A DNA stretch of 64,000 bases from positions 1,221-65,220 of the forward strand of contig JAJDCM010000382.1 of assembly GCA_029260825.1 (NCBI GenBank). The letters run 5' to 3'. Positions 535-62,495 of this stretch are shown one piece after another. Both the position numbers and the translations under genes were made by a program. The notes below the pieces were generated by a model. It made no database searches. It had not been told where the DNA came from and saw nothing but the letters and a program-made list of their open reading frames with translations. Position 1 is the stretch's first letter, and every line of letters begins with the position of its first letter. The stretch comes from Planctomycetota bacterium (GTDB lineage Bacteria; Planctomycetota; JACOTG01; JAJDCM01).

Positions 535-1317
535 TCAGAGCCGGTGGCGAATCGCCCACAGATCAGGGAACACCGGGTGAAACAACGACTTTTTGAGGAA
601 TTTGACCCCCAAGGTTCCGGCAGTTCCTTGCTTGCTTCCGATGGTACGCTCCACCAGCTTGACGTGGCGGTAGCGCCATTCCTGAAGCCCTTCGTCCACG
701 TCCGTCATGGCCTCGATGAGGTAGGTCATTTCCGGAACGTCACGATAGAGCTGAAGAACACAGTCTTGAATCGTGGTATTCGGGACCGTCGGAAGAGTGA
801 TGTCCTTTTCCCGAAGTTCGGCCGGTATGGGAGCACCTCGTTTTTCCAGAAGGTCGTAGAAATGATCGACCACCGATTTTTCTGCCAATCGTTTCTCGAC
901 TTTCGCGTAGCCCGGCGTGCCACTCTGAAGCAGACGCAGGGTGTCCGGTCGCTTGTAGCCAAGAACACACTCGATCTCTCGAAACTGCGCAGACTGAAGA
1001 CCGGAGGCCGTGTCCAAGCGCACCCGAAAACTCGTGAAGTGCATCGGCGTCATTGTCTCCAGGATGTCGACCTGAGAGACAAGTGTCTTCAGGACCATGC
1101 GGACTCTCTTCCACGTGGCAATCGAGCCGAAGAGATCATTGTCAGAGAAGTCGGTCTTGATCTTGTCGATCTCATGAAGAAGCAATTTGAACCACACTTC
1201 ATAGGCCTGATGGATGACGATGAACAGCATTTCATCGTGTTCCGGGGGATCGGATTGTGCTTCCTGCAGGCCAAGGAGTGTCTCAAGCTTCAAGTAGTCG
1301 GGGTAGGTAAGAGTCAT
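535..1317 (-). CDS. kynA: Tryptophan 2,3-dioxygenase
   Basis: 260-aa ORF with the TDO-family N-terminus (YPDYLKLETLLGLQ...IHQAYEVWFKLLLHE). It is 9 nt downstream of kynU on the same strand. Confidence 0.85.
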   Translation of the reverse strand: MTLTYPDYLKLETLLGLQEAQSDPPEHDEMLFIVIHQAYEVWFKLLLHEIDKIKTDFSDNDLFGSIATWKRVRMVLKTLVSQVDILETMTPMHFTSFRVRLDTASGLQSAQFREIECVLGYKRPDTLRLLQSGTPGYAKVEKRLAEKSVVDHFYDLLEKRGAPIPAELREKDITLPTVPNTTIQDCVLQLYRDVPEMTYLIEAMTDVDEGLQEWRYRHVKLVERTIGSKQGTAGTLGVKFLKKSLFHPVFPDLWAIRHRL

Positions 1318-1326
1318 TATTTGCTC

Positions 1327-2616
1327 TCAGGAAATTCGGTGAGAAAGAGCCATCGCGAACTCCCAGACATCCTGGAAAGTATTGTACAGAGGGACGGGAG
1401 CGGCTCGAATGACGTTCGGGGGTCGAAAATCACAAGTGATTCCCGCCTGGCCAAGCGCGGCAAGACGCATTTTTGGATCGTCGTTCACAAGAAGAGAAAG
1501 CTGACATCCACGTTCGCTCGGTTGATCCGGAGAGACAATCGAAACCACGCCGTCTCCGAGTTCCTTCAGGAGAAACTCAAGATATCCGGTCAACAGTTCG
1601 GACTTTCTTCGCAAGGCCTCCATCCCGACCTCATCAAAAATTCGAAGAGAGGAAAGGAGTGGGGCCATGGAAAAGATCGAAGGATTCGAGATCTGCCAGC
1701 CATCGGCTCCAGCGCGGGGTATGAAATCGGCGACCTCATCCATCTGAAATCGGGTCTCCGGATCGTTTCCCCACCATCCTGCAAATCGAGGAAGATCGAG
1801 ATTGTGGCCATGACGTTCATGAACGAAACAACCGCCCACCGCTCCCGGTCCGGAATTCAGATATTTGTAATTACACCAGGCGGCGAAGTCGACGTTCCAG
1901 CGATGAAGTTCGAGAGGAACGTTGCCTGCCGTATGAGCCAGGTCCCAGCCGACCGTGCATCCTTTTGCCTGAGCAAGCTGGGTGATGCGCTCGATGTCAA
2001 AAAGCTGGCCGGTCAGGTATTGAACTCCGCTCAGAAGGACGAGCGCAATCCGCTCTCCTTCGTTCTCAAGGATCTCTTCAATGGTGGCAAGAGGAATGGT
2101 TGATTGACCGCTCGGCGGCCGGGCAATCAGCAAGGCCGCTTTGGGGTCAAGACCATGGTGAATCAACTGAGTCGACGTCGCATAGCCGTCGGACGGGAAG
2201 GCACGGTCTTCGATCAGGATCTTGTATCGTTTCTTGGTGGGGCGGAAGAAGGACACCATCATCAGGTGCAAGTTCACCGTCAGGCTGTTCATCATGACCA
2301 CTTCACCGGGAAGGCCGCCCACGAGACGAGCCCCCATCTCGCGGAAACATTCATGATAAGAGAACCAATCGGGGTCGGCTTCGAAATGCCCCTCAACTCC
2401 CAGCTTTGCCCAGTCGGAAAGAAGCCGCTCCATCTGGGGGCCGACGGCCTTGGGTTGAAGGCCCAGTGAGTTCCCGCAGAGATAGACGGACGGGGTGCCT
2501 CCTTCCCGCTGTGGGATATGGAATTGATCCCGCATCGAAGCGAGCGGGTCGTTCGCGTCGAGCTGCTCGGCGCAGCTTCGGTTGACGTCGAATGGTGAGG
2601 TCGATGTTGAGCCCAT
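1327..2616 (-). CDS. kynU: Kynureninase (PLP-dependent)
   Basis: 429-aa ORF with kynureninase-family conservation (VYLCGNSLGLQPK, YKYLNSGPGAVGG). It lies 5 nt downstream of the ACMSD gene. Confidence 0.85.
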   Translation of the reverse strand: MGSTSTSPFDVNRSCAEQLDANDPLASMRDQFHIPQREGGTPSVYLCGNSLGLQPKAVGPQMERLLSDWAKLGVEGHFEADPDWFSYHECFREMGARLVGGLPGEVVMMNSLTVNLHLMMVSFFRPTKKRYKILIEDRAFPSDGYATSTQLIHHGLDPKAALLIARPPSGQSTIPLATIEEILENEGERIALVLLSGVQYLTGQLFDIERITQLAQAKGCTVGWDLAHTAGNVPLELHRWNVDFAAWCNYKYLNSGPGAVGGCFVHERHGHNLDLPRFAGWWGNDPETRFQMDEVADFIPRAGADGWQISNPSIFSMAPLLSSLRIFDEVGMEALRRKSELLTGYLEFLLKELGDGVVSIVSPDQPSERGCQLSLLVNDDPKMRLAALGQAGITCDFRPPNVIRAAPVPLYNTFQDVWEFAMALSHRIS

Positions 2617-2621
2617 CTCGG

Positions 2622-3644
2622 TCAGTTTGACTCCCCGAAGACGTCTTTTTCTTTCAGTCCCAAGAACTCCAGAGGAGTCTTCACCAGCATCTGGTGCTTT
2701 ACTTCGTCCCCGATGTCGGAAAGAGAATCAACCAGCTTTCCAGGTTCCGCTTCCCCCAAAGGAAAAGGATAGTCGGATCCAAGGGCGATGCGCTCGGGCC
2801 CGATGAGGTCGATGAGCCCTCGAAGAGCAAATGGATCGTAAACCGCAGTATCCACGTAGAATTTACCGATGTAACTCCTGGGACTCTTGTCGTTGTCAAC
2901 GGCACACAAGTCGGGGCGAGCGTTGAAGCCGTGTTCGATTCGTCCAATTGTCCAGGGGAATGAGCCCCCGCCATGAACGAACAGAAGCTTGAGTTTCGGC
3001 AGGCGTTCGAGAACACCACCAAAGATCATCGAGCTCAGGGCCAGGGCGGTTTCCGTGGGCATTCCCACCAGCCAGGGAAGCCAGTACTTCTTCATGCGAT
3101 CCTTGGCCAACATGTCCCAGGGATGAACCATGATGGCAGCGCCAAGCTCTTCGGCACGGGCAAAGACAGGGAAGAGCTCTTCCGCATCAAGGTTCCAATC
3201 GTTGACGTGGCTTCCGATCTGGACGCCGCACATGTTGAGCTCGCTCATACATCGTTCGAGCTCTTTGATGGCAAGGTCCGGAGCCTGCATGGGAAGGGTC
3301 GCGAGTCCTCCAAAACGTCGGGGACGATCCTTGACGATCTCGGCGATGTGATCGTTGAGAAGCCTCGAGAGATCGTGACAATCATCGTGCTTGGCCCAGT
3401 AGCCAAACATCACCGGCACCGTGGAGAGGACCTGGTACTGAACCCCGAGCTGATCACATTCTTCTTCTCGTTTCGCCGGGCTCCAGCAGTTCTCCTTGAT
3501 CTCACGAAAAAAGGTATCGTCCACCATCATTCGAGCGAATCCAGGTCGGTGGTGCTCGAGTCGGACAAATCCGCCGTAACCATACCGATCTCGAAGATCG
3601 GGCCAGGTTTCAGGCAGAATATGAGTGTGTAGATCGACCTTCAG
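2622..3644 (-). CDS. 2-amino-3-carboxymuconate-6-semialdehyde decarboxylase (amidohydrolase-2 family), probable CUG start
   Basis: The track ORF 2622..3530 aligns along its whole length to ACMSD (VRENCW, TLPMQAP, KYWLPWLVGMP, HGGG.FP.T.GRI.HGF). The in-frame sequence upstream of the first AUG encodes (L)KVDLHTHILPETWPDLRDRYGYGGFVRLEHH, which is the metal-binding HxH N-terminus of ACMSD. No AUG, GUG or UUG lies in frame back to the upstream TAG. A CTG at 3644-3642 sits 7 nt after a GGAGG Shine-Dalgarno. Confidence 0.75.
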   Translation of the reverse strand: MKVDLHTHILPETWPDLRDRYGYGGFVRLEHHRPGFARMMVDDTFFREIKENCWSPAKREEECDQLGVQYQVLSTVPVMFGYWAKHDDCHDLSRLLNDHIAEIVKDRPRRFGGLATLPMQAPDLAIKELERCMSELNMCGVQIGSHVNDWNLDAEELFPVFARAEELGAAIMVHPWDMLAKDRMKKYWLPWLVGMPTETALALSSMIFGGVLERLPKLKLLFVHGGGSFPWTIGRIEHGFNARPDLCAVDNDKSPRSYIGKFYVDTAVYDPFALRGLIDLIGPERIALGSDYPFPLGEAEPGKLVDSLSDIGDEVKHQMLVKTPLEFLGLKEKDVFGESN

Positions 3645-3770
3645 GGCAGGACCTCCATCTTGCGTCGCTGGAATCGGATGAATTTTCCGTACCCTAGCAA
3701 AACACCATCTGGACTGCCAGCTCCCATCCCCCTCGATCAGAGCCGAGGGGGCCGACCTGAGGCGGGGAAC

Positions 3771-3998
3771 CTACTGGGTCGCCCCGAGTGCATCCAGGAT
3801 CTCTTGATCCTCCGGAAAACGATCGTCTTGCTCGTGCTTGCTGAAGACCATCTTGCCGTCTCGTTTGACGTCGAAAATGCCGCCACTACCTTCGATGAGC
3901 TCGGACTCGATTCCCAGTTTTCCCTTCAGGAATGCCGCCAGACTGGCGGCTTTTGGGTGATAGTCTCATTGAACGCAGTACGTGATTGAAACGTGCAT
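3771..3998 (-). CDS. SelW-like (Rdx family) selenoprotein with in-frame UGA (Sec) at codon 11
   Basis: AAGGAGG lies 7 nt before the ATG at 3998. Translation is MHVSITYCVQ-U-DYHPKAASLAAFLKGKLGIESELIEGSGGIFDVKRDGKMVFSKHEQDDRFPEDQEILDALGATQ, stop TAG at 3773-3771. It has the CxxU redox motif and the GGxF..DG...F SelW fold pattern. The TGA is at 3968-3966, and a perfect hairpin GCCGCCA-GAC-TGGCGGC begins 16 nt downstream of it. Not in the ORF track because of the TGA. Confidence 0.7.
3934..3950 (-). other. SECIS-like stem-loop (7-bp GC stem, 3-nt loop) 16 nt 3' of the in-frame UGA of the SelW-like gene
   Basis: Plus-strand sequence is gccgcca gac tggcggc. This is the position expected for a bacterial SECIS, inside the coding sequence immediately after the Sec codon. 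Confidence 0.5.
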
Positions 3999-4036
3999 CT
4001 TGAGTCCTCCTTTTGGCTTTCCATGTTGAAGTTTCT

Positions 4037-5614
4037 TCAGTTCTTCGGGTTTCCGGATTCAGGTTGGTTCGAATACAGATAGCCGAGTTCTTTCAATCGT
4101 TGAATCGCGCTTTCGCTCAGAGTTCCGGAGTCGCCGTCGAAATCATCCGGTTTGCCATGGGCACTCCGACGGATTTGAAAACTCTCCCAGTCCTTGCGAA
4201 GTCGACTGTTGAATTCAACCAGATCGGGAAACCTACTTTCCTTGATTGAGGATTGGTTCTGACTTTCCTGGGGATCCTTCTTCAGGTCGAATAACTGGTC
4301 GATTCGACCGAGATTTCCCTCCGGATCGACCTTCGAGAGGTCCTCAAGCCAGCCCTCCATATCTTCCCCGACTTGAGGGAAGTGAAGGATGTACTTCCAA
4401 TCCCTACTGACCAGGGCGTACTGCTTTCGTATCCCGCCTTCGAGGTAATAGACCGGATCATTCTCCTCCTTGCTTTCATCTCCTCGAACCAGGTTCACGA
4501 GACTGTTTCCGTGAAAACCACGTTCGGAAGGAAGGCCGGCAAGCTCGAGTAAGGTGGGAGCAACATCGACCAGGTTGACCGGTCTCTTGATGACCTTTCC
4601 AGCCGGGAGTTTCTGGGGATAGCTGAGAATCATGGGGATGCGCATCACTTGTTCGTAGAGAACCCCGTGGCCAAAGAAATCATGTTCACCAAGACTTTCC
4701 CCATGGTCGGAAGTGATCAACACGACGCATTCTTCAAGGAACCCTTCACGGTCCAGCCGCCGAAAGAACCGTTCAAGTTCCTGGTCGACGAACCCGACTC
4801 CTCCATCATACTGGGCGTCCAGAAAACCGGTGGGATTCTCCGGATCTTCCCGATCTTTGGCCACGAGATGGGCAGAGATCACTCCGAACTGATCGGTTCC
4901 TTCCCGGACTTCATAGCGTCGATCCTTCTTCCCCTCATAGATAGCATCCCCTACGAATTTTTGATCAAAAGGAGAAGGAGGGGCAAAAGGACCGTGAACA
5001 TCGAAACAATGAAGAAAGAGGAAGAACGGATCGTCACCGTCCCGCTCGGTCAGCCAGTCAAGAGAACGATTCGCGACCTGTCGGATGCCGCCGTCCGAGT
5101 CGACCTTGTCGTTCATGCCCGCCTCCGGGTCAAACTTCATGAAGCCCTGATGAAAGCCAAGCTGAGGTACGAGCCACGGAGTATCAACGAACGCTGCCGT
5201 GTCGTATCCCGCTTCGAGAAACCGCTCGGCAAGAGTCGTCTCCGCGGCATCAAGGAGCCAGTGGTGAAAGCTCTGGGGGTTTTCGACGGTGACCTCTTCA
5301 ACGGGCCTTCGGTACAACGCTGGATAGTTACCGGTGAGCATCGACATATGGGCGGGGACGGTCCATGGCGCCGAAGTGTAGGCCCGATCGAACCGGACTC
5401 CATCGCGGGCAAGTCGATCCAGGAAAGGGGAGGTAGCTCGAGGATGCCCGTAGCTTCCCAACCGATCTGCCCGAAGAGTGTCGATCGAGATGAGGATCAC
5501 CGAAGTTCGCTTGGGCGTCGGATCCGCACCACACGAAGAAAGAAGGAGCAAGGACACGATCCCCATGAAGACAGGAAAAGGAGCCCTTGGGCTGGGGGAG
5601 TCGGTTCCGTCCAT
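4037..5614 (-). CDS. Sulfatase-family (alkaline-phosphatase superfamily, LtaS/phosphotransferase-like) lipoprotein
   Basis: 525-aa ORF with a signal peptide and lipobox (LLLSSCG). It has the sulfatase-fold N-terminus (ILISIDTLRADRLGSYG...AYTSAPWTVPAHMSMLTG), but the CxPxR formylglycine motif reads T-V-P-A-H. A Thr nucleophile is typical of LtaS, EptA and OpgB-type enzymes rather than true sulfatases. Confidence 0.75.
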   Translation of the reverse strand: MDGTDSPSPRAPFPVFMGIVSLLLLSSCGADPTPKRTSVILISIDTLRADRLGSYGHPRATSPFLDRLARDGVRFDRAYTSAPWTVPAHMSMLTGNYPALYRRPVEEVTVENPQSFHHWLLDAAETTLAERFLEAGYDTAAFVDTPWLVPQLGFHQGFMKFDPEAGMNDKVDSDGGIRQVANRSLDWLTERDGDDPFFLFLHCFDVHGPFAPPSPFDQKFVGDAIYEGKKDRRYEVREGTDQFGVISAHLVAKDREDPENPTGFLDAQYDGGVGFVDQELERFFRRLDREGFLEECVVLITSDHGESLGEHDFFGHGVLYEQVMRIPMILSYPQKLPAGKVIKRPVNLVDVAPTLLELAGLPSERGFHGNSLVNLVRGDESKEENDPVYYLEGGIRKQYALVSRDWKYILHFPQVGEDMEGWLEDLSKVDPEGNLGRIDQLFDLKKDPQESQNQSSIKESRFPDLVEFNSRLRKDWESFQIRRSAHGKPDDFDGDSGTLSESAIQRLKELGYLYSNQPESGNPKN

Positions 5615-5671: not shown

Positions 5672-6577
5672 TCATGAGTTCGTCGTCACTCGGGCACGAA
5701 GACTTTGGAGTCGAAAGGATCTGAGGCTCGCCAGGGTGCCAAAGCCGGCTCCCAGCAGACCAATGCCGGCTCCACCAAAAGAGCCGACCCAGGTCATTAT
5801 CTTAGGAGAAATGATGCCGTGCGCAACCTCGAGTTGAACGGCGGCCATGCCAAGAAGAAAGATGGCCATGAGAAGCTGGAGGAAATACACGCCTCGAACC
5901 CTGAAAAGCCGATGTCGCTCCATCTCACGAGCGAGCTCCTCCCCGGCCGGCCCGGACTCCGGGAGGGCTTGAGGCGCCAGGACTTCTCGACGGACCCAGA
6001 ACATCGAAATCAGCAAGGTGACGAGTCCGCAGCCCTCGAAAAGGAAAGCGTTCAGCACCCAGTTTCCCGCAGTTTCCGAGGTGACGGTGACCATCCTCCA
6101 GATGAAAAGAGAAAGGGCCAGGACAGCGAGGAGCGGGAAGAGGACTCGGGACCACCCGGGGAGGTCCTTCGCGACAGACCGCCTGGTGAGGCTTGCCGTT
6201 CGAACCGAGCCGGTCGGGGTCACGGGCTCGATTCCCTTCTTCGACCGAGAAGCTCTCTCGTGCTTGCGGATGAGCACAAAGGAAAAGGGCCACCAGATCC
6301 CGTGAAACACGAGAAGCTGGGAAGCATTGAGGATCGATTTTCTGTCTCCTGCTTGGATCGCCTCGGCGTCGAGAATCATCCAAACAAGGAAGGCTACTCC
6401 GGCGAGCCCGGTTGCCAGGAACAGCCGGGTTCGATCGGGTGCAATGCACTGTTCCACTTCATCGCGAACCTCTCTTTTCAGGTTGCGACGGGCCCTACTT
6501 AGATAGAAAACCGGTACCAGGCTCACACCAAGAAGAATTCCAAATTGAATCATCGAGTGAATAAGAATGGGGCTCAT
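5672..6577 (-). CDS. Polytopic membrane protein of unknown function, 4-nt overlap with the upstream GntR regulator gene
   Basis: 301 aa with several hydrophobic segments. ATGA start/stop overlap with the GntR gene at 6574-6577. The plus-strand alternative 5705..6502 is low-complexity and charged. Confidence 0.6.
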   Translation of the reverse strand: MSPILIHSMIQFGILLGVSLVPVFYLSRARRNLKREVRDEVEQCIAPDRTRLFLATGLAGVAFLVWMILDAEAIQAGDRKSILNASQLLVFHGIWWPFSFVLIRKHERASRSKKGIEPVTPTGSVRTASLTRRSVAKDLPGWSRVLFPLLAVLALSLFIWRMVTVTSETAGNWVLNAFLFEGCGLVTLLISMFWVRREVLAPQALPESGPAGEELAREMERHRLFRVRGVYFLQLLMAIFLLGMAAVQLEVAHGIISPKIMTWVGSFGGAGIGLLGAGFGTLASLRSFRLQSLRARVTTNS

Positions 6578-6963
6578 GCCTGGATCTCCTTTGCCCAGCG
6601 ATCGATTTCTTTTGTGAGTAGCTTCTTCACCTCTGGAAACGGAAGCCCGGAAAGTCGCGCTTCGGTAAGAATCTCCCGAAGCTTTGCCTGGATCCGGCCT
6701 CGAGTCGATTCCCCCTCCCCTGAGGGGCCATCCGTCGCCACCGTCACGCCCTTTCCACGTCCCACCTGAAGTAGCCCCTCGTCCCGAAGCTTCCGGTAGG
6801 CTCGGGCCACGGTGTTGAAGTGGATTCCAAGATCCCCGGCGAGCTGCCGGACCGAAGGGAGAGAATCTCCCGGGCCGAGCTCTCCTCGAGCAATGGTCTC
6901 CCGAATGCCCCGTCGGATTTGCTCCTCAAGGGGGATCGAACTTTCAAGGTCAACGGTGAGCAT
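6574..6963 (-). CDS. GntR-family (YtrA-like short) transcriptional regulator
   Basis: 129 aa with a winged HTH (LPSVRQLAGDLGIHFNTVARAYRKLRDEGLL) and a short C-terminal effector region. Confidence 0.8.
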   Translation of the reverse strand: MLTVDLESSIPLEEQIRRGIRETIARGELGPGDSLPSVRQLAGDLGIHFNTVARAYRKLRDEGLLQVGRGKGVTVATDGPSGEGESTRGRIQAKLREILTEARLSGLPFPEVKKLLTKEIDRWAKEIQA

Positions 6964-7084
6964 GGTTACGCTGTATCATCTATTGGTACAGTACGTCAAG
7001 CAGCTTGGAAGGTTCAAAAATCGGGCCAAAATCGGCGGCGGGAGCGTATTGACGAATCCGGGGGAAAGAGAAAACAATAGACCC

Positions 7085-8983
7085 ATGGTGAATCCAGGCA
7101 TGACCGAGGCAGCACTTCATGTGCAAAAAGGACCGGCGCGACCCAGCCGGGTGCTCCTTCGTGAGGATCTCCTGTTAATCGGGCGATCCGAGGACTGCGC
7201 TCTCATCTTGCTGGATGATACCGCCTCCCGTCACCATGCCAGCGTCGAGCGGACCGAGGATGGCTTTCGTTTGAAAGACCTGGGATCTTCAAATGGAACC
7301 TTCGTGAACGGAGACATGAATCCAGATCGACTCCTCATCGAGGGGGATGAGATCCGGATCGGCTCGGTTCACCTTCAATTCAGCCTGAAGGCCGGGCGGA
7401 AAACGATCATCGTCGAGGAAAAAGAGGAGAGTCCGACAACTCTGAGGGTTGAAACCTCCATACCCGGCCCCACGTTTGATCCCACCGAGGGCGATGACGA
7501 TGACGGGCTTCTTCGACGACTGAAAACACTTTATCGGGTAAACACGGCTCTTTCCCGGTGCCTCGATACGAACGAACTCCTCCTCGAGGTCTTTCGGAGT
7601 CTGACGGAGGTCCTTCCGTTTGAGCGAGGCGCGGTCTGGTACAGCAAGGGGGGGCAAACAAGACCTTTGATCTACTACCAGCGAGAAGACGAAAATCATC
7701 GCCCGTTTCAGGTGAGCTCGACTCTTCTCCAGCGAGTGCTGGTGAGCAAGGAAGGCGTCCTCGTTCGGGATGTTCTCGAGGACGAAAAACTCCGAGATCG
7801 CCGGAGTGTTCTTCTGGGTAGTACGCTCTCCATCGCTGCAGTGCCTCTTCTGGTTGAGGGCAATTGCATGGGAGTTCTCTACATCGACTCAACCCTGGTC
7901 GATTCCTTTTCTCCCGAGGATCTCGAATTGCTCCTGGGCCTGGCATGTCCCACCGGGCTGGCGATCCGCAACGCGGAAACTTTCACCCGAAAAGACCAGG
8001 AAGCTCATCGACTTCGCCAGGAGCTTACGACTCACCACCGAGCCATCGGTGATTCTCCCGAATTCAAGGAGGCGCTTTCCCTCACCGAGAAGGTGGGGCC
8101 GACGGACACCACCGTCCTCCTGCTCGGAGAGACCGGAACAGGTAAGGAGATTCTTGCCCGGACCATCCACAATCTGAGCACCCGAAGAGAAGGGCCCTTT
8201 GTCCCGGTGAATTGTGCGGCGATTTCTCCCTCCCTCCTTGAAAGTGAACTCTTCGGTCACGTCAGTGGAGCATTCACCGGAGCTCATCGGGACGCTCCGG
8301 GTCAGTTCAGGCTGGCTGACGGCGGCACATTATTCCTGGATGAAGTCGGGGAAATGCCCCCCGAGCTCCAATCAAAGCTTCTTCGAGTTCTCGAGGAGCG
8401 CGAAGTTCGTCCGGTGGGCGCCGATCGCACCGTGGCGATCGACATCAGGATTCTTGCCGCCACGAACCGGGATCTCCAGGGCGACATCGAAACCGGTGGC
8501 TTCCGCGCCGACCTCTACTATCGCCTGGGTGTGATGCAGATCAACATTCCACCTCTTCGGGAGCGAACGGGAGACATCTTGCTTCTCGCTCGATCCTTCC
8601 TTGACGCATTGCGAGGCGGCCTGGGGAAGCATCCTTCTGGCTTCTCTTCGGAGGCAGCAGAGATCCTAGAGCGGTATCCTTGGCCGGGAAATGTGCGAGA
8701 GCTTCGCAATGTGGTGGAAAGAGCATCCGTTCTTGCCGCAGGAGAGCAGATCAAACCGAGAGATCTCCCCGATGATGTCCGTCGGAGCATCCAGGGCGCT
8801 GGGGGTGGGCGCTTCGATGACCCGGCCGGGGATGAACCCATCTTCTCTCTCAAGGAAGCGGAAAAGATCGCCATTGAGAGGGCCCTCCAGAAGACCGGGG
8901 GGAGAAAGGGGGAGGCTGCCAAACTCCTCGGTACTTCCTGGCCAACCCTGACGAAGAAGATCCGAGAATACGGGCTGGATTGA
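7085..8983 (+). CDS. Sigma-54-dependent transcriptional activator with N-terminal FHA and GAF domains (FHA-GAF-AAA+-Fis HTH)
   Basis: FHA region LIGRSEDCALILLDDTASRHHASVE...LGSSNGTFVNG. AAA+ region GETGTGKEILARTIHNLSTRREGPFVPVNCAAI...GAFTGA. C-terminal HTH KGEAAKLLGTSWPTLTKKIREYGL. Start chosen at ATG 7085 because the track ORF start at 6812 overlaps the divergent GntR gene. Confidence 0.85.
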   Translation: MVNPGMTEAALHVQKGPARPSRVLLREDLLLIGRSEDCALILLDDTASRHHASVERTEDGFRLKDLGSSNGTFVNGDMNPDRLLIEGDEIRIGSVHLQFSLKAGRKTIIVEEKEESPTTLRVETSIPGPTFDPTEGDDDDGLLRRLKTLYRVNTALSRCLDTNELLLEVFRSLTEVLPFERGAVWYSKGGQTRPLIYYQREDENHRPFQVSSTLLQRVLVSKEGVLVRDVLEDEKLRDRRSVLLGSTLSIAAVPLLVEGNCMGVLYIDSTLVDSFSPEDLELLLGLACPTGLAIRNAETFTRKDQEAHRLRQELTTHHRAIGDSPEFKEALSLTEKVGPTDTTVLLLGETGTGKEILARTIHNLSTRREGPFVPVNCAAISPSLLESELFGHVSGAFTGAHRDAPGQFRLADGGTLFLDEVGEMPPELQSKLLRVLEEREVRPVGADRTVAIDIRILAATNRDLQGDIETGGFRADLYYRLGVMQINIPPLRERTGDILLLARSFLDALRGGLGKHPSGFSSEAAEILERYPWPGNVRELRNVVERASVLAAGEQIKPRDLPDDVRRSIQGAGGGRFDDPAGDEPIFSLKEAEKIAIERALQKTGGRKGEAAKLLGTSWPTLTKKIREYGLD

Positions 8984-14191: not shown

Positions 14192-15733
14192 CTACTCGCC
14201 CTTTGACCAGGTAGCCAGGACCAACAGGGTGGCCCAGGAAACTTCGCCAGGATAGCTGACAGCTTTCGTCACTCGAAGATGACGGCGAAGTTGTCGTTGC
14301 CTCGCCGAGACGATTGCTTTGGCGAAGTAGAGCGCCGGGGCGAGGGAGTAGGCGGCTTCGCCACCCAGACGATCCTCTCGAGTCCTGGCCCTCATGGCGG
14401 TCCAAAGTTTCTTGTTGTCCGGATGAAAGGTCCCCGAGGTACTTTTCAGATTCAATCCGGTCATCCCGGAATGTCCTCCGTCATAGCCAACCTCAAGCGC
14501 AAATGTTGCGATCTCCCGGGTGCGTTCCTTGATCAGAGGCGCCAGCCCGGGGGAGTGAGTCTCGATGACCAGCATTTCGTAGGGCCAGAGACAACCCAGA
14601 TGAAACCAGGTGACGTACCGTCCCTTCGGGTTCCGGGAAGCCAGGTAGGGCCATGTGATGAGGTCGCGGGTCTTGACCCACTCTCCTGGATCGGTCTGCC
14701 AGCCTCTCTTTGACGTATCACCGGCAACTTTTCGCCAGGAGCAAAACTGGAGCAAGCGGCCCTCGACAACGGCCAGGAAATCCTGGGTGGTTTCGAACGT
14801 AAATGGAACCTCTTTAAGCATCTCGGGGGTCAGATATCCCTGTTCAACTAGGGCCTCAAAGACCTGACTGAATCGAAAGGCTGCCCCCGCTGCTCGAACG
14901 AAAGGTCGAACGCCTCCCATTCCGATCATCCATTTCTCGTTCTCTGGATCATCCTGGAAAAATGGACTGTTCTGGAGACGATGAAAAGCGACTTGAAATC
15001 CGTTCAGCAGGGCAGCCCGGGTTTCACCGTCTCGTGCCGCGATTGCGGTCAGACCGATGGCCGGGTGCCTCTGAAGGTGTCCGTGGTCCTGCTTGTCCGG
15101 AATCTGGACCAGCCAGTTTGCGAGGTTGACGGCGTTGTCCCGTGCCTTCTCATCCCCGTAGAGTAGCCAGCCTAGAAGGTTATTCGTGATCCGGTCCGAA
15201 TCGTTGTTGCCCCGTCCTCCCCGGCGAGGGTCGGGGATGCTCTTTTCGTCCCCGGTTCGAACGTATCGCTCGAGCGGGTCTTTTACCTGGAGGGCGGCCA
15301 TGTAGCGCCGTCCCGCCGGGACGAGAGCCTTCTCGTAGAGTTTGCGAGCGATGGCCCTTTCCTTGGCGGTTCCTAGCGGAATGGGGAAGAGTTTTCCAAC
15401 TCGATCTTTCTCCACAACCGGATCGACTGGCTTCTGCTTCTCGTTCTTCTTTGTTCCGGGGTCAACCGTCGCTTTCTTGGAGCCGGAGATTGGTTGTGTT
15501 CCTGAGGAGGAGTCTTTCCCTGCCTTTGCCGGAGACGCTACCTCTCCGCCCAGCTGTCCTTTCTGGTGAGTTTCCGACGGACGCTTCTGGCTCTCCTCCT
15601 GGGAAATGGCGTCAGGAGCACCCCCAAATAAGAGGGAAGCAAGGAACAGCACGATGGGCCCCCGAAGCTTGAGAATCAGGGACCATGTCGGGGAATCCGT
15701 TTGGGCGTACATGGAGCACCTATTCTCCATCAT
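14192..15733 (-). CDS. Hypothetical secreted protein (signal peptide, no recognisable domain)
   Basis: Long ORF with signal peptide IVLFLASLLFGGAPDAISQ. It sits immediately downstream of the GDPD-FGGY gene, so it is probably co-transcribed. Confidence 0.5.
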   Translation of the reverse strand: MMENRCSMYAQTDSPTWSLILKLRGPIVLFLASLLFGGAPDAISQEESQKRPSETHQKGQLGGEVASPAKAGKDSSSGTQPISGSKKATVDPGTKKNEKQKPVDPVVEKDRVGKLFPIPLGTAKERAIARKLYEKALVPAGRRYMAALQVKDPLERYVRTGDEKSIPDPRRGGRGNNDSDRITNNLLGWLLYGDEKARDNAVNLANWLVQIPDKQDHGHLQRHPAIGLTAIAARDGETRAALLNGFQVAFHRLQNSPFFQDDPENEKWMIGMGGVRPFVRAAGAAFRFSQVFEALVEQGYLTPEMLKEVPFTFETTQDFLAVVEGRLLQFCSWRKVAGDTSKRGWQTDPGEWVKTRDLITWPYLASRNPKGRYVTWFHLGCLWPYEMLVIETHSPGLAPLIKERTREIATFALEVGYDGGHSGMTGLNLKSTSGTFHPDNKKLWTAMRARTREDRLGGEAAYSLAPALYFAKAIVSARQRQLRRHLRVTKAVSYPGEVSWATLLVLATWSKGE

Positions 15734-15756
15734 TGAGCGTGTCCGTCCAAGCGGAT

Positions 15757-17928
15757 TCAATCGAGCACCTTCCTGCGCCACTCCCGGTGGAGACGCTCGG
15801 CCTGCCGGGGGCGTGTGCGGGGGTGGATGACGGTAAGAGGTTCCCTCTCGCGAAGCCGTGCTTGCCCGCCCAGAGCCAGAAGAGCCGCGCCGATGATGGT
15901 GCTTTCCTGAACCGGGCTGACAAGAAGTGACGCGCAGAGGGTGTCCGCAAGGATCTGAAGAAGATGAGGATTCCTGGAAAGTCCGCCTCCCACGGTCAGA
16001 CGAGATCGATCGGGAACGACTCGTCCAAGCCGGATCAAATTCTCCCGCACCAGGTATGCGATCGACTCCAGGAGGCCCCGAGCAAGCCCGGGAGCGTTCC
16101 GACGTCCTCGGACAACAAACCGACGCCTCGGATCCCAGAAGGGAGATCCAAGGCCTTCCTGAGCGGGAAGGACGTAGGTCCCTGCCTCTCCTCGAGCGGC
16201 GAGCTCCCCAAGACTCAACTGGTCCGCATCGTTCTGGGCGAGGAAGCCCTGGATGGAAGGTACAACCCGGTGAACCGTGCCCTCGATCAGATACTCCGCC
16301 TTACCACCCTGGCTCCAAGCAATACTGGAAAGAAGGCCGGGCACGCGATGGAGCACCGAACCCGTGTTGGCAAGTAAGAATCCACCGGTCCCCAGATTCA
16401 GGCAGGCGGGACCGGTCTGGACTTCTCCAGAACCGAATGCGGCGAGCGCAGCCTGCTGGTCTCCGATCTGGCAACGGGTGACAAGCTTTCGGCCCCCCAG
16501 CATGATCTCGGCCGGGGATCCGCAAGTATCTGCAATCTCCGGGAGGATTGACGCCGGGATGCCAAAAAGGCTCAGAAGTTCCGGATCCCAGTCTCGTCGA
16601 CGCAGGTTCATGAGAAGCATGCGGGCGGCAAGGGTTGGGTCCGTGCGGAAGATGCGCCCCTCGGACCATCGCCACAAAAGATACGTGGGAAGGGGTCCAC
16701 AGAGAAGTCGATCCGAGTGAACTCGCGTCCGACGAAGCTTCCAGGCAATCTTGCTGGCTGAATAACTGGGAGACAGGAGAAGACCGGTTCGATCTCGGAC
16801 TAGATGGGCTGAGTCCTTGCGGGCGGCAACCAGACGACGTCCTCGAGTGCACCGCCAGCTCGGAGCATCCCCGATCGGCTTTCCTGTTTCCCGATCCCAC
16901 AGAACAAAAGTCGATCTCTGGGACGCGAGTGCCACGGTGCGTACGTTTTCTTCCTCGAGCAGGAGTCGAGAGGCCTCTCGGGTTACGAGACGCTCCACGG
17001 TTTCGGCATCGAGGCCAAGCTCACCCTTGGGGCCGCGAAGCGTGGGGAGCGGTTTCCTCACCAGCTTGAGCGGAACTCCCTGATGGGAGACAAGCGCAAT
17101 TTTTACCTCCGTTGACCCCAGATCGATGGACAGCACAGGGGCCCTTGCCCGGCTCGGACGAGGGGGAGACGAACGACGTTGATCGCCGACCAGCTCCACC
17201 CAACGGATCATGCGGCCCGGGTCATCGGTGATGACTCCATCCACTCCCACTCGATGCAGTCGTGTCAGCTCCTGTCGAGTGTTCACCGTATAGGGCAAGA
17301 TCTTGCGTCCTTGTCGATGCTGATTCTTGACCCAGCTCTTGGTCACGTGAGAGCGATTCGGAACGACGAAGGAAGCCTGAATCTCAGTGGCCAATCGATT
17401 GAGAGAAAAAGAAGGACGGGAAGGATAGACGATTCCGAGCTGGAGATCAGGAGCGTTTCTTGCAGCCTCTTGAACCATCGCCGGTTCCGCCGACGTCAAC
17501 AACGCCCGGTTGAAACCACCGGTTCTCCTCAGCGCCAGAAGGACCTCCCGGACAAGAGGCTCGGCGTGGGACGGGGGACCCTTGAGTTCCACATGTACGT
17601 CGACATCCGGCCGCAGAATGGCGAGAGCTTCATCAAGAGACAACATCCTTGTTCGACGCCAGGTCTGGTTCTTGCGAAAGTCCGGTCGGACTGAGAGCTC
17701 GCAGCATTCGGCAAGGGTCATCTCCCGGATCGAGCCGTTGTGGCCACAGACCCGCCGAGTGGTTGCATCATGGTGGACCAGAGCTCGGTCGTCCGCGGTC
17801 AGCTGAACATCGAATTCGACCGCATTCACCCCTGCGGCAAGGGCTAACGAGAACGAAGGAGCGGTGTTCTCCGGAGCGCGTGCGGCCGCACCGCGGTGGC
17901 CGACGACGATCAATCCGCCCTTGGTCAT
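15757..17928 (-). CDS. Fusion protein: glycerophosphodiester phosphodiesterase (GDPD) N-domain + FGGY-family glycerol-kinase-like C-domain
   Basis: N-terminus VVGHRGAAARAPENT...EFDVQLTADDRALVHHD (GDPD). C-terminus SIDLGSTEVKIALV...WDRETGKPI...LLLSPSYSASKIAWKL...GGGLSRNPHLLQILAD...IIGAALLA (FGGY/GlpK). Confidence 0.75.
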   Translation of the reverse strand: MTKGGLIVVGHRGAAARAPENTAPSFSLALAAGVNAVEFDVQLTADDRALVHHDATTRRVCGHNGSIREMTLAECCELSVRPDFRKNQTWRRTRMLSLDEALAILRPDVDVHVELKGPPSHAEPLVREVLLALRRTGGFNRALLTSAEPAMVQEAARNAPDLQLGIVYPSRPSFSLNRLATEIQASFVVPNRSHVTKSWVKNQHRQGRKILPYTVNTRQELTRLHRVGVDGVITDDPGRMIRWVELVGDQRRSSPPRPSRARAPVLSIDLGSTEVKIALVSHQGVPLKLVRKPLPTLRGPKGELGLDAETVERLVTREASRLLLEEENVRTVALASQRSTFVLWDRETGKPIGDAPSWRCTRGRRLVAARKDSAHLVRDRTGLLLSPSYSASKIAWKLRRTRVHSDRLLCGPLPTYLLWRWSEGRIFRTDPTLAARMLLMNLRRRDWDPELLSLFGIPASILPEIADTCGSPAEIMLGGRKLVTRCQIGDQQAALAAFGSGEVQTGPACLNLGTGGFLLANTGSVLHRVPGLLSSIAWSQGGKAEYLIEGTVHRVVPSIQGFLAQNDADQLSLGELAARGEAGTYVLPAQEGLGSPFWDPRRRFVVRGRRNAPGLARGLLESIAYLVRENLIRLGRVVPDRSRLTVGGGLSRNPHLLQILADTLCASLLVSPVQESTIIGAALLALGGQARLREREPLTVIHPRTRPRQAERLHREWRRKVLD

Positions 17929-52780: not shown

Positions 52781-53977
52781 CTATGGCGCCCGAAGCTCCT
52801 TTGAATACTGAAAGAGGGCGGTTTCAAGCTCGGCCATCTGCTTCTTGAAGATCTTCTCGAAGAGCTTGGCTCCGTGGTCGTTTGCGGCTTCCTGCATGTC
52901 GGTAAAGCTTGGCACTTTGATGTATTTTTCGCAGAGCTTTTCCCAGGTCGGATAGAAGACAGAATCCTTGTTCTTCTGCATGAAATGGCAAAGAAGCCAG
53001 CACTGACCACCCCAGGCCCAACGGGACCTTCCTTGAACCTCTCTTGGAGAAGTGCGAAGAAGTTTCCGAAGGGGCATCAGTCCTTTGACGGGAAGCTCAT
53101 CGATCAGGGATTCGTAGAGTAACCCGACTTCAAGGGTCTCTGTTTCTCGATCCCATTTCACTCGCTCAAAATACCTGCGAGCCCCCTCTCCAAACCAGTC
53201 GGGAACTCGGTCCTTCCATGCGTACCACGTATAGAGCTCGGACACGGCCCCGACCGTTCGACTGATCAGGGTTTGACGGCCTTCACCCGGATCATAGGTG
53301 ACGAAAACTTCGAGCCCCGAATCAAAGAATCCGGTGGTATGAGCCCAACCCTTGGCGTCGTGATCCTCGCAGAAATCCTGGAATCCCTGCTTATCCTTGA
53401 AGAGAAAGACAGGCATCAGGGCCCCGGGGATCTTGATGTCGTCCACCCTGCGAGTGAGCTTCTTTGGTTTCTCGGGAGTGCGATTCATGAAGAACTCTTG
53501 ATAGGCGGGAGCTGCCGCCTCCAGGGCCATCAGGAGCTCGGCCCCCAGATCCTCCGGGCCGTCTGTGCGCACATAGAAGTGAAGACCGGAGAGTTCCCAG
53601 CCCTTTCGCCAGTTCGAATGAAGAGCATCGGCCTCGGCCCGAGGAACCCAATCTTTTCCCCGGGGCAGGAGCCCTTTTTCCATCTTCTCCCGATCTTTCT
53701 TATCCATCCAGCGTCCGCGGTGACGGACCTTTCCCTTTTTCAGGAGCTTCAGCTCCTTCTTGGTGACCCACTTTCCCTCATGCTCAACAAGACCTCGCTC
53801 CATCGCGGACTTCTCTGCGAGAGTCACAAGCTTCCCCTTGTAGCGGACCTTCTCTTCCTTTCCCGCGCCTTGTTTTGGTCGAGACACAGGAGATGACGCC
53901 TGAGCAACCGGCAAAGTGAGGGAAAGACAGAACAGGACGAGGGCTAGCCAAATCGGAAATAATGGCCGTTGGTTCAT
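52781..53977 (-). CDS. Hypothetical secreted protein (signal peptide; Lys-rich region)
   Basis: Start chosen at MNQRPLFPIWLALVLFCLSLTLPVAQA. No recognisable catalytic motif. Confidence 0.5.
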   Translation of the reverse strand: MNQRPLFPIWLALVLFCLSLTLPVAQASSPVSRPKQGAGKEEKVRYKGKLVTLAEKSAMERGLVEHEGKWVTKKELKLLKKGKVRHRGRWMDKKDREKMEKGLLPRGKDWVPRAEADALHSNWRKGWELSGLHFYVRTDGPEDLGAELLMALEAAAPAYQEFFMNRTPEKPKKLTRRVDDIKIPGALMPVFLFKDKQGFQDFCEDHDAKGWAHTTGFFDSGLEVFVTYDPGEGRQTLISRTVGAVSELYTWYAWKDRVPDWFGEGARRYFERVKWDRETETLEVGLLYESLIDELPVKGLMPLRKLLRTSPREVQGRSRWAWGGQCWLLCHFMQKNKDSVFYPTWEKLCEKYIKVPSFTDMQEAANDHGAKLFEKIFKKQMAELETALFQYSKELRAP

Positions 53978-54118
53978 GGGAGAGCTCCTTGTGGGTTGTC
54001 CCCCATTGTCCCTTTGTTCCCATAATTTGTCCATCAAGGACTCCGGCGGCCAAGCCGACGGACCTTGAAAATGCGATGATGCGCACCCAGCGGGACAAAG
54101 ATTCAAAACCGGGAGATC

Positions 54119-54670
54119 TTGATGAGCGAAGAGCAAGAAGTCGAAAAGTGGAGAACCCTTGAGAAAGAGGAGCAGTTTCACTGTCGTGTCTTCCAGATAG
54201 ACCGGGTCCGCAATCAATCTCCGGGAGGAGAAAGGCTCGATGATTTCTTCATCATCCGGAGCCCGGACTGGGTAAACGTCATCGCTCTGACTTCAAGGCA
54301 GGAGGTGGTGATGATCGAACAGTACCGTCACGGAATCGACAAGATCACCCTGGAGATACCGGGCGGAATGATCGACGCGATCGACAAGGATCCGATCGAG
54401 GCGGGAGTCCGTGAGCTTCGGGAAGAGACGGGCTACGTGGGAAAGAACCCCCGGCTCATCGGGACGGTGGAGCCGAATCCGGCCCTACAGTCCAACGTCT
54501 GTCACTCGATTGTTGTCGAAGATGCGGAAAAGCTGGCGGAACTGGAACTCGACCCGAACGAAGAAATCGTGACCCGATTGATTCCTTTGAAGGACATCCG
54601 CGGATTGATCGCAGACGGAATCATTCGACACGTCATGGTCATCGGCGCCTTTTACCACCTCGGGGATTGA
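54119..54670 (+). CDS. NUDIX hydrolase (ADP-ribose pyrophosphatase-like)
   Basis: Nudix box GGMIDAIDKDPIEAGVRELREETGY. Confidence 0.75.
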   Translation: MMSEEQEVEKWRTLEKEEQFHCRVFQIDRVRNQSPGGERLDDFFIIRSPDWVNVIALTSRQEVVMIEQYRHGIDKITLEIPGGMIDAIDKDPIEAGVRELREETGYVGKNPRLIGTVEPNPALQSNVCHSIVVEDAEKLAELELDPNEEIVTRLIPLKDIRGLIADGIIRHVMVIGAFYHLGD

Positions 54671-60652: not shown

Positions 60653-61660
60653 ATGACTGGAAGCGGCGGAGCATCGGTGATGGTCTCCGGTGGGGCTGGA
60701 TACATCGGAAGCCATGCGGTAAAGGGGCTTCTTGGTCGCGGCTACAATGTTCTCACCTATGACAGTTTGGCGGAAGGCCATCGGCAAGCAGTGCTGGGGG
60801 GAGATTTCTTTCAGGGTGAGCTTGCTTCAAGAGAGCAACTCGACCAGGCGATGTCCACGTTTCGCCCCAAGATCGTGATGCACTTTGCCGCCCACTGTTA
60901 CGTGGGAGAATCGGTCGAAGATCCTGGCAAGTACTACCGCAACAATGTCTCCAATACCCTGAATTTACTCGAAGCCTGCCGGGACAACGGAGTCGAGGGG
61001 GTGATCTTTTCCTCCACTGCGGCCGTATTCGGCAACCCGGTTTCTCTTCCGATCGAGGAGACCCATCCCCAGGCACCGATCAATCCCTACGGTGAAACGA
61101 AACTCATCGGGGAGAGGATGCTTCGGGACTTTGAAACCGCTTACGGGCTGAAGCACACCGTGCTTCGCTATTTCAATGCGGCGGGGGCAGACCCGGAAGG
61201 CCAGCTCGGGGAAGATCACGATCCGGAAACTCATCTCCTTCCCCTGGTTCTCAAGACGGCCCTTGGAAAACGGGATTCCGTTCAGGTTTTCGGGACAGAC
61301 TACGACACTCGAGACGGAAGCTGTCTTCGAGACTACGTCCATGTAACCGATCTCGCGGAAGCACACATCATGGCCCTGCAGCGCCTCCTTGATGGAGGGG
61401 CAAGCGATTCGTTCAATCTGGGAAACAGTCTGGGCACTTCGGTTCTTGAGGTGATTCAAACCGCAGAACGCATCACGGGAAAGAAAATCAAACACCAGTT
61501 ATGTGACCGACGTCCTGGCGATCCCGCCGTCCTGGTCGCAGATTCAGCCAAGATGGAGAAATCGTTGGGTTGGAAGCCCAAATACCAGGACATCGAGGCC
61601 ATCCTCACCACGGCGTGGGACTGGATGGCTGCTCACCCCGACGGCTACAACAAGAGGTAA
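60653..61660 (+). CDS. galE: UDP-glucose 4-epimerase
   Basis: VSGGAGYIGSH Rossmann motif, YxxxK region, full-length GalE conservation. Confidence 0.85.
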   Translation: MTGSGGASVMVSGGAGYIGSHAVKGLLGRGYNVLTYDSLAEGHRQAVLGGDFFQGELASREQLDQAMSTFRPKIVMHFAAHCYVGESVEDPGKYYRNNVSNTLNLLEACRDNGVEGVIFSSTAAVFGNPVSLPIEETHPQAPINPYGETKLIGERMLRDFETAYGLKHTVLRYFNAAGADPEGQLGEDHDPETHLLPLVLKTALGKRDSVQVFGTDYDTRDGSCLRDYVHVTDLAEAHIMALQRLLDGGASDSFNLGNSLGTSVLEVIQTAERITGKKIKHQLCDRRPGDPAVLVADSAKMEKSLGWKPKYQDIEAILTTAWDWMAAHPDGYNKR

Positions 61661-61706
61661 CCCGTCATGTGTCCTCATCGGATCAGGACACAAGGAAAGG
61701 CAATCC

Positions 61707-62468
61707 ATGGAGCTCACGATTCTCGGTTCGGGTACCGGTGTGCCCACCAAGAAACGAGGTGCAGCCGGCTACCTTCTGCGGGTCCACGAGTCCCGGTTCC
61801 TCTTTGATTCGGGGCCGGGTACGATCCTCAAGCTTGCTCAGCTCGGGGTCGGGCTCGATGAACTCGACGGCATCTTCTACACTCACTTTCATCCCGATCA
61901 TTCCCTCGAATTTGCCGCGATTGTCTTTGCTCTCATGAATCCAAGCTTCGAGAGCAGTCTCAAGGAACTCCTCGTGATGGGTCCCCCCGGCTTGAAAGAG
62001 TTCTACGGCAAGCTTCAGGCCCTGTACGGCTCGTGGGTGACCCCGAAAAACTACCGGCTTCATTTGAAGGAGATCTCACCGACGGGGAAGGAGCACACAT
62101 TCGGCCCCATGCGAATTGCCGCCTGGAAAACGGCCCACACACCTGAAAGCCAGGGCTACAGGATTACCGGTCCTGAGAATCGAGTCCTTGCTTACACCGG
62201 CGACACCGATGTTTGTCCGGAGCTCGTGGATCTTGCGAAAGATGTGGACGTCCTTCTCTGCGAAAGTTCTCATCCGGACGGGCACCACGTGAGTGGGCAT
62301 CTGACTCCGCGCCGTGCCGGGAGGGTGGCTCGAGAGGCGGGATGTGAGCGCCTGATCCTGACTCACTTCTACCCCATGTGTGAGGGCCGAGATCTCGTCG
62401 GTCAGTGTCGGAAAGAATACCCCGGAGAAATCGTCCTTGCGGAAGATCTCATGACTTTGTCCATATGA
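61707..62468 (+). CDS. MBL-fold metallo-hydrolase (RNase Z/ElaC-like short form)
   Basis: MELTILGSGTGVP...HFHPDHS (HxHxDH). RBS aaggaaagg before ATG 61707. Confidence 0.7.
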   Translation: MELTILGSGTGVPTKKRGAAGYLLRVHESRFLFDSGPGTILKLAQLGVGLDELDGIFYTHFHPDHSLEFAAIVFALMNPSFESSLKELLVMGPPGLKEFYGKLQALYGSWVTPKNYRLHLKEISPTGKEHTFGPMRIAAWKTAHTPESQGYRITGPENRVLAYTGDTDVCPELVDLAKDVDVLLCESSHPDGHHVSGHLTPRRAGRVAREAGCERLILTHFYPMCEGRDLVGQCRKEYPGEIVLAEDLMTLSI

Positions 62469-62495
62469 TCGATCAAGAGATGGCCTGATTCCAAC

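Follow-up and report, generated by a model that had tools for sequence, protein, structure and literature searches.

Small selenoproteins related to selenoprotein W have been known from bacteria since 2005, when Zhang, Fomenko and Gladyshev described SelW-like proteins with a CxxU motif and a bacterial SECIS element (PMC1088965). The Sargasso Sea data set contained 48 SelW-like genes, more than for any other selenoprotein family (PMC1088965). A later survey lists them among the bacterial selenoprotein families, with few cysteine (Cys) homologs in organisms that use selenocysteine (Sec) (Zhang et al. 2006, PMC1794560). SelB carries GTP and Sec-tRNA(Sec), binds to the apical loop of the SECIS hairpin, and delivers Sec at the UGA codon (Böck and colleagues, summarised in PMC1088965). 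Bacterial SECIS elements are recognized by a small apical loop with a conserved G (PMC1088965), and the hairpin that we describe below has both.

The known bacterial SelW-like selenoproteins are about 70–80 amino acids long, have an N-terminal CxxU motif, and belong to the Rdx (SelT-SelW-SelH) family. Their SECIS hairpin lies directly past the UGA and has a G in its small apical loop, and most members of the clade are Sec forms, with few Cys forms. Here we report a gene with these same characteristics, which we call selW, in a 64-kb stretch of DNA from a Planctomycetota bacterium ("the window"). We consider it very probable that this region encodes a 75-residue SelW-like selenoprotein of the Rdx family, which is a thioredoxin-fold family, with SECIS-directed insertion of Sec at a UGA codon.

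A SelW-like gene that is interrupted by a UGA codon

A preliminary description of the window had proposed that a 75-codon gene on the minus strand is split by a TGA and is missed by ORF finders. The sequence and a mechanical list of ORFs agree (Table 1). The frame runs from an ATG to a TAG with a single internal stop, the TGA at codon 11; the translated product reads MHVSITYCVQ before the UGA and DYHPKAASLAAFLKGKLGIESELIEGSGGIFDVKRDGKMVFSKHEQDDRFPEDQEILDALGATQ between the UGA and the final stop. None of the minus-strand ORFs in the mechanical list is in the selW frame, and ORF finders miss the gene because the first in-frame start past the TGA is Met50. The description had also mentioned a consensus ribosome-binding site 7 nt from the ATG, a CxxU motif (C-V-Q-U) at codons 8–11, and a location between a sulfatase-family gene and a kynurenine operon on the same strand. 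All of these details are correct; for the motif, both the translation and the alignment to CxxC proteins (see below) agree.

Table 1. Features of the selW locus (positions within the window).
Feature	Coordinates	Strand	Details
SelW-like (Rdx family) selenoprotein CDS	3771..3998	-	75 codons + TAG; one in-frame UGA, putatively read through
Start codon ATG	3998..3996	-	read from the sequence
Shine-Dalgarno AAGGAGG	4006..4012	-	7 nt before the ATG; read from the sequence
C-V-Q-U redox motif	3966..3977	-	Cys8 at 3977..3975; putative Sec11 at the UGA
TGA, codon 11	3968..3966	-	sole internal stop; read from the sequence
UGA-to-hairpin spacer	3951..3965	-	15 nt; codons D-Y-H-P-K; equal length in 84/84 sequences
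Bacterial SECIS-type hairpin GCCGCCA-GUC-UGGCGGC	3934..3950	-	perfect 7-bp stem; apical loop G-U-C at 3943..3941
Stop codon TAG	3773..3771	-	read from the sequence
Sulfatase gene	4037-5614	-	upstream of selW; own TGA stop 38 nt before the selW ATG
Amidohydrolase_2 gene	2622-3530	-	downstream of selW
Kynureninase gene	1327-2616	-	downstream of selW
Tryptophan 2,3-dioxygenase gene	535-1317	-	downstream of selW

We searched protein profiles with the U replaced by C. The product matches Pfam's Rdx (PF10262) with E = 4e-16 and 59.4 bits (the cut-off is 22.6 bits), and the match extends across residues 2–70 of 75 and so spans the UGA. It also matches TIGR02174 (CXXU_selWTH) from NCBIfam, with 51.5 bits, which is above the cut-off of 34.2. 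These two hits confirm the assignment to SelW/Rdx that the preliminary description had made. The score for the equivalog NF041051 (SelTWH_Campy, also from NCBIfam) is 82.8 bits, under the cut-off of 88, so the protein is near the Campylobacter-type equivalog and outside it.

All of the matches among solved structures are Cys-form Rdx proteins (3dex, 2ljk/MIEN1, 2ojl, 2oka, 2fa8, 2obk, and 2p0g). The CxxC of these proteins aligns over YCVQ[U], so that the CxxU is at the family's conserved N-terminal position. The family-invariant residues are all retained: G37, G39, G40, D43, V44, D47, S53, K54, R60, F61, P62, and E63. Given these matches, the product is predicted to have a thioredoxin-like fold.

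The preliminary description had also called the gene unannotated, and we did not find the selW product in a collection of 15 billion proteins, where the best match is 63% identical; the products of the neighboring genes are present there from an NCBI record.

Gene neighborhood and other features of the window

Downstream of selW, and separated from it by a 240-nt spacer, is a three-gene kynurenine-pathway cluster (535-3530, minus strand). Across the 83 related loci that are described below, we found no conserved synteny of selW with sulfatase or kynurenine genes: near selW there are a few unrelated sulfatases and no kynurenine genes at all. Because the neighborhood is not conserved in the relatives, it gives no clue to the function of selW.

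The window also encodes a 723-amino-acid sigma-54-dependent activator (6812-8983, plus strand) with FHA and GAF sensor domains, an AAA+ domain, and a Fis-type HTH. Similar activator C-terminal modules are found within 10 kb of selW in five of the related loci (L005, L020, L034, L062, and L069), and their proximity is probably due to chance. Two minus-strand ORFs lack a match in the databases that we compared them to: a 301-amino-acid ORF beside a GntR-type regulator has no match in Pfam (5672-6577), and a 478-amino-acid ORF has no match in NCBIfam (52781-54217).

Scanning the window for other selenoprotein genes, as frames that are broken only by TGA, identified just adjacent independent genes. 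For instance, at 61347-64000 (plus strand), an ORF similar to MBL-fold hydrolases and an ORF similar to PBP4/D-Ala-D-Ala carboxypeptidases share a frame, with a single TGA between them. This looks like two independent genes and not like a recoded gene: the second has its own start and an N-terminus that resembles a signal peptide.

The UGA codon is conserved in related loci

We scanned genomes, with one genome per species, and found 429 relatives of selW, of which the best 80 were kept. These best 80 of the 429 come from at least eight lineages: Planctomycetota/Planctomycetales, Phycisphaerae, Myxococcota, Zixiibacteriota, Spirochaetaceae, Ignavibacteria, Betaproteobacteria, Krumholzibacteriia, and others. 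The window's selW is at most 66% identical to any relative among the best 80 of 429 and the others that we retrieved. The comparisons below use 84 sequences, which are the window and 83 related loci; 83 of the sequences are distinct.

All 84 sequences have TGA at the homologous codon. Of the 83 loci, 79 have the start codon exactly 10 codons upstream of the TGA, and 70 have an SD-like core no more than 20 nt from the start; the total length of selW in the related loci is 70–82 codons. Across the 84 homologs, the entropies at the three codon positions are 0.76, 0.55, and 1.19 bits, and the periodicity is present before as well as after the TGA. Hence, selection for protein coding acts on the frame through the stop codon.

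The conservation of the TGA also accounts for how these proteins appear in public data. A first protein search gave a single full-length relative, which has tryptophan at the Sec position, and five fragments with truncated N-termini. For three of the relatives from this search we looked at the DNA, which has TGA at the equivalent codon, so the tryptophan is an artefact of gene calling. We then ran HMMER exhaustively against 1.84 billion cluster representatives and classified the best 150 matches: 118 are N-terminally truncated (with a median of 57 amino acids), 18 are full-length with tryptophan (including P0001, P0014, P0015, and P0019), and 14 have a true CxxC. Truncated and tryptophan-bearing calls are the pattern expected if TGA is conserved. 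Thus, public metagenome calls systematically truncate the SelW-like selenoprotein family or mistranslate it with Trp. The representative matches also include long repeat proteins (P0016, P0023, P0024, and P0162), which we rejected as chance matches that are inflated by the repeats.

If the UGA really encodes Sec, then Cys homologs should align across it, and both the solved CxxC Rdx proteins and the 14 CxxC proteins among the best 150 do so.

Alternatively, the UGA might be read without Sec, as Cys, Trp, or Gly, by a near-cognate or suppressor tRNA or because the codon is reassigned; the hairpin would then be a stimulator of pausing or readthrough. Cys is misinserted at Sec codons under selenium limitation in other systems, and the tryptophan in some public calls (P0001 and the other CxxW proteins) could also be taken in favor of a reading without Sec. 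As explained above, though, those calls are made by gene callers on DNA that reads TGA. Also, TGA is not globally reassigned, as it is the commonest ordinary stop codon in the window: of 42 long ORFs, 21 end in TGA, and the adjacent sulfatase gene is one of them. Members of the Rdx family have only Cys or Sec at the position in question, which is the catalytic CxxC/CxxU site. Finally, the hairpin has the apical G-U signature of SECIS elements that bind SelB, at a fixed distance from the UGA. Taken together, we find a reading without Sec highly improbable.

The hairpin after the UGA is conserved at the RNA level

A perfect hairpin had been reported to begin 16 nt after the UGA, and this is indeed where it is: the stem begins at the 16th nucleotide, after the spacer. 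The 17-nt stem-loop has a predicted energy of -12.0 kcal/mol, and it is present in both the minimum free energy fold and the centroid fold of the local RNA. To see how often such a hairpin would arise by chance, we considered every TGA triplet in the window (which is 56.5% GC) and searched for a perfect hairpin of at least 7 bp that lies 8–25 nt past the TGA and has a G early in the loop. We found one after 10 of the 2253 triplets (~0.4%), and the mean for shuffled sequences is 4.3. The hairpin alone is only modestly unusual, so what is decisive is not that it is there but that it is conserved.

The hairpin has no match in Rfam, even with a permissive threshold (we searched 3700-4060). We also considered the stem in the 3' UTR, past the TAG, which is no better than in shuffled sequences (z = 0.76) and lacks a U-run.

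None of the 84 sequences has a gap in the alignment of 63 nt around the TGA, and therefore the UGA and the hairpin are a fixed distance apart. For a helix of eight pairs, 87.7% of the cells have standard pairs, as compared to 22–53% if the 3' arm is slid by 1–3 nt. The covariation score is 0.208, versus 0.106 for shuffled alignments (none of 500 reached the observed value), and the slid registers score 0.080 or less. The pair between columns 27 and 39 illustrates this covariation: among the 83 distinct sequences, it is CG in 62, GC in 8, GU in 6, UA in 4, UG in 3, and unpaired in none. Each of these columns is the third position of an Ala codon and is therefore free of constraint from the protein. 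About a third of the relatives lack pairing at two other positions of the stem, 25-41 and 28-38. Because of this, the functional core is the upper five pairs and the loop; RNAalifold predicts likewise.

The apex is even more constrained. The third positions of apex codons 18–20 have zero entropy in the 83 distinct sequences, while the other third positions have 0.2–1.9 bits, except for the invariant A of the UGA. The apex codons are NCC, AGU or GGU, and YUG: serine is always encoded by AGU, never by AGC or UCN, and leucine is always encoded by YUG. Because these third positions are invariant, the loop begins with G-U (G32 and U33) in every Sec form (84/84).

As a control for constraints from the protein sequence, we used five Cys-form loci (L086 to L090). 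They have 5, 6, 4, 4, and 7 of the 7 pairs in register, respectively, and the Sec forms have 6–7 of 7. Since the Cys forms keep 4–7 of the 7 pairs, part of the stem is imposed by the peptide A-A-S-L-A-A in GC-rich codons. This does not explain the apex or the synonymous covariation: just one of the five Cys forms has the G-U loop start that all 84 Sec forms have. The Cys form with 7 of 7 pairs, at 301-534 of L090, has the motif CKVC and the hairpin GCGGCCG-GCC-TGGCCGC, which lacks the G-U loop start; it may be a recent conversion from Sec to Cys.

Thus the hairpin is conserved in orthologous loci, as one would expect if it functions with the UGA: it is in register in 84 of 84 sequences, it covaries at synonymous positions, and its G-U is invariant. 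Compared with the five Cys forms that were sampled, and in sequences that are phylogenetically related, these patterns indicate selection on the RNA beyond the constraint that is imposed by the protein. The 84 Sec forms and the Cys forms are a clean example of RNA-level selection within a coding sequence, which constrains synonymous sites. Judging from the conserved UGA and hairpin, the in-frame UGA almost certainly encodes Sec.

Could there be no gene here at all? The hairpin might be a plus-strand intrinsic terminator, or the palindrome might be due to chance, with a plus-strand ORF of 109 amino acids (3660-3989) as the real coding sequence. A pattern scan does rate the palindrome as terminator-like on the plus strand (GCCGCCAGACTGGCGGC then TTTTGGGTGA), and comparable hairpins follow some TGA triplets by chance, at the frequency given above. 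But the T-run corresponds to the minus-strand Pro-Lys codons CCC-AAA-A, and the relatives have CCCCGG, CCCAAG, or similar sequences there. Because the T-run is not conserved in the relatives, we rejected the terminator-like call at 3934-3950 (plus strand; the palindrome followed by TTTTGGG) as a false positive. We found no credible plus-strand gene upstream of it. Also, neither of the overlapping ORFs (3660-3989 on the plus strand and 3737-3886 on the minus strand) has a match in Pfam, even at E ≤ 1, while the minus-strand frame of selW has a strong match to its family as well as codon periodicity. We give almost no credence to the absence of a gene.

Selenocysteine machinery

We did not find the machinery for decoding Sec within the 64-kb window. 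ARAGORN and Rfam identified only a tRNA-Leu and no tRNA-Sec, and tblastn with SelA, SelB, and SelD from E. coli found no selA, selB, or selD; the sole SelB-like GTPase in the window is LepA. There is also no tRNA-Sec near selW in the 83 related loci.

One of the relatives does encode a component of the machinery near selW. In a metagenome-assembled genome from the Planctomycetales (L017), whose SelW is 60% identical to the window's, SelD is encoded 5 kb from selW (14997-16040, minus strand; 374 bits for TIGR00476). This selD has an in-frame TGA at the position of Cys17 of E. coli SelD, with YANCAG before it and AGKLP after it, and strong hairpins follow the TGA. Because of its TGA, this SelD is a Sec-containing protein itself, so a related genome uses Sec, which indirectly supports Sec decoding in the source genome. 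(We dropped an apparent SelD match at the end of another locus, L046, as it is PurM-like.) Cultured Planctomycetes are reported to have the complete Sec machinery as well as selenoproteins (PMC4807772).

Another scenario is that this lineage lost the Sec-decoding machinery, so that selW now stops at codon 11 and the remainder is a young pseudogene. The lack of Sec machinery within the window fits with this, and sister lineages are documented to have lost the Sec trait and SelW-like genes (PMC1794560). On the other hand, one would expect a dead gene to be damaged in at least some way, and here the 64 codons past the UGA are intact, every family-invariant residue is retained, the stem is a perfect 7 bp with all of the invariant apex bases, and the ribosome-binding site is a consensus one. 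These observations make a relic quite unlikely. We instead favor a functional selenoprotein gene, which marks the source genome as that of a likely user of selenocysteine. This could be useful for trace-element ecology.

Proposed mechanism

By analogy with the systems described in the introduction, translation of selW would initiate at the ATG at 3998, downstream of the strong Shine-Dalgarno sequence. At codon 11, the ribosome would encounter the UGA with the bacterial SECIS hairpin 15 nt further on, and the apex of the hairpin (C-C-A-G-U-C-U-G-G) is expected to bind the complex of SelB, GTP, and Sec-tRNA(Sec). The hairpin would keep SelB beside the ribosomal A site, which would lead to insertion of Sec instead of termination. 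Binding of SelB to this hairpin, and selenium insertion in the source organism, are thus what we would predict from the known systems.

The Cys8-x-x-Sec11 center would lie at the start of the first helix and would cycle between the selenolate/thiol and the selenenylsulfide. From its family, the selW product is likely to have redox activity, and it would act as a small thiol-dependent oxidoreductase.

Comparison with known systems

We compared the hairpin to the SECIS of fdhF from E. coli, which we read from the K-12 genome. Both hairpins are within coding sequence, a short distance 3' of the UGA. The apex of fdhF is GCA-GGU-CUG and that of the window is GCC-AGU-CUG, in the same reading frame, so that both encode Ala-Gly/Ser-Leu. 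The exact GGUCUG of fdhF is found in 21 of the 83 relatives of selW. The two elements differ in position, as the GGUCUG of fdhF is at +22 and the AGUCUG of the window is at +25, which places the window's apex 3 nt (one codon) farther from the UGA. Counting from the U of the UGA, the G and U of the loop are at +26 and +27 in the window and at +23 and +24 in fdhF. Also, the window's loop has 3 nt (GUC) and is closed by an A-U pair, whereas the fdhF loop has 4 nt (GGUC), and the window's stem is a continuous 7 bp without a bulged U, unlike that of fdhF.

At least eight lineages share an identical apex (NCC-RGU-YUG) at an identical distance from the UGA, and the genomic context is not conserved. 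This leads us to speculate that selW and its embedded SECIS form a self-contained recoding cassette that is horizontally mobile. The unrelated fdhF has the same Ala-Gly/Ser-Leu apex codons, which hints that the peptide A-(A/S/T)-(S/G)-L-A is conserved for the sake of the RNA and not the protein. We put this idea forward tentatively and think it is rather doubtful. If true, the protein motif would be a by-product of recognition by SelB.

Among eukaryotic proteins, mammalian selenoprotein W and MIEN1 (C17orf37) share the Rdx domain family and the position of the CxxU/CxxC motif with the selW product. MIEN1 (PDB 2ljk) aligns over residues 3–71 with E = 7e-6. Unlike the window's gene, eukaryotic SelW has its SECIS in the 3' UTR and relies on the SBP2/eEFSec machinery, and the two sequences have little identity. 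Bacterial SelW and eukaryotic SelW may be branches with separate evolutionary origins (PMC1088965).

The Cys-form bacterial Rdx proteins (3dex, which is SAV_2001; 2fa8, which is Atu0228; 2obk; 2p0g; and the products of L086 to L090) are in the same fold family and length class, and their CxxC aligns over the CxxU. They differ from the window's gene in that TGC or TGT replaces the TGA, as well as in the loop start and the pairing of the stem, as described for the control loci above.

The closest known system is the bacterial SelW-like selenoproteins, from which the window's gene does not differ in kind. What sets this copy apart is its sequence, which is at most 66% identical to those of the relatives that we retrieved, and its sulfatase/kynurenine context, which is not shared. 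Since SelW-like proteins with SECIS elements have been published since 2005, and since NCBIfam has dedicated models, the proposed selenoprotein is correct but not new in kind, and the finding raises no new biological question. Its value is for annotation: judging by its sequence, selW is probably an expressed gene for a redox selenoprotein, and it is invisible to standard ORF finders. It is a further member of the bacterial family that has been known since 2005.
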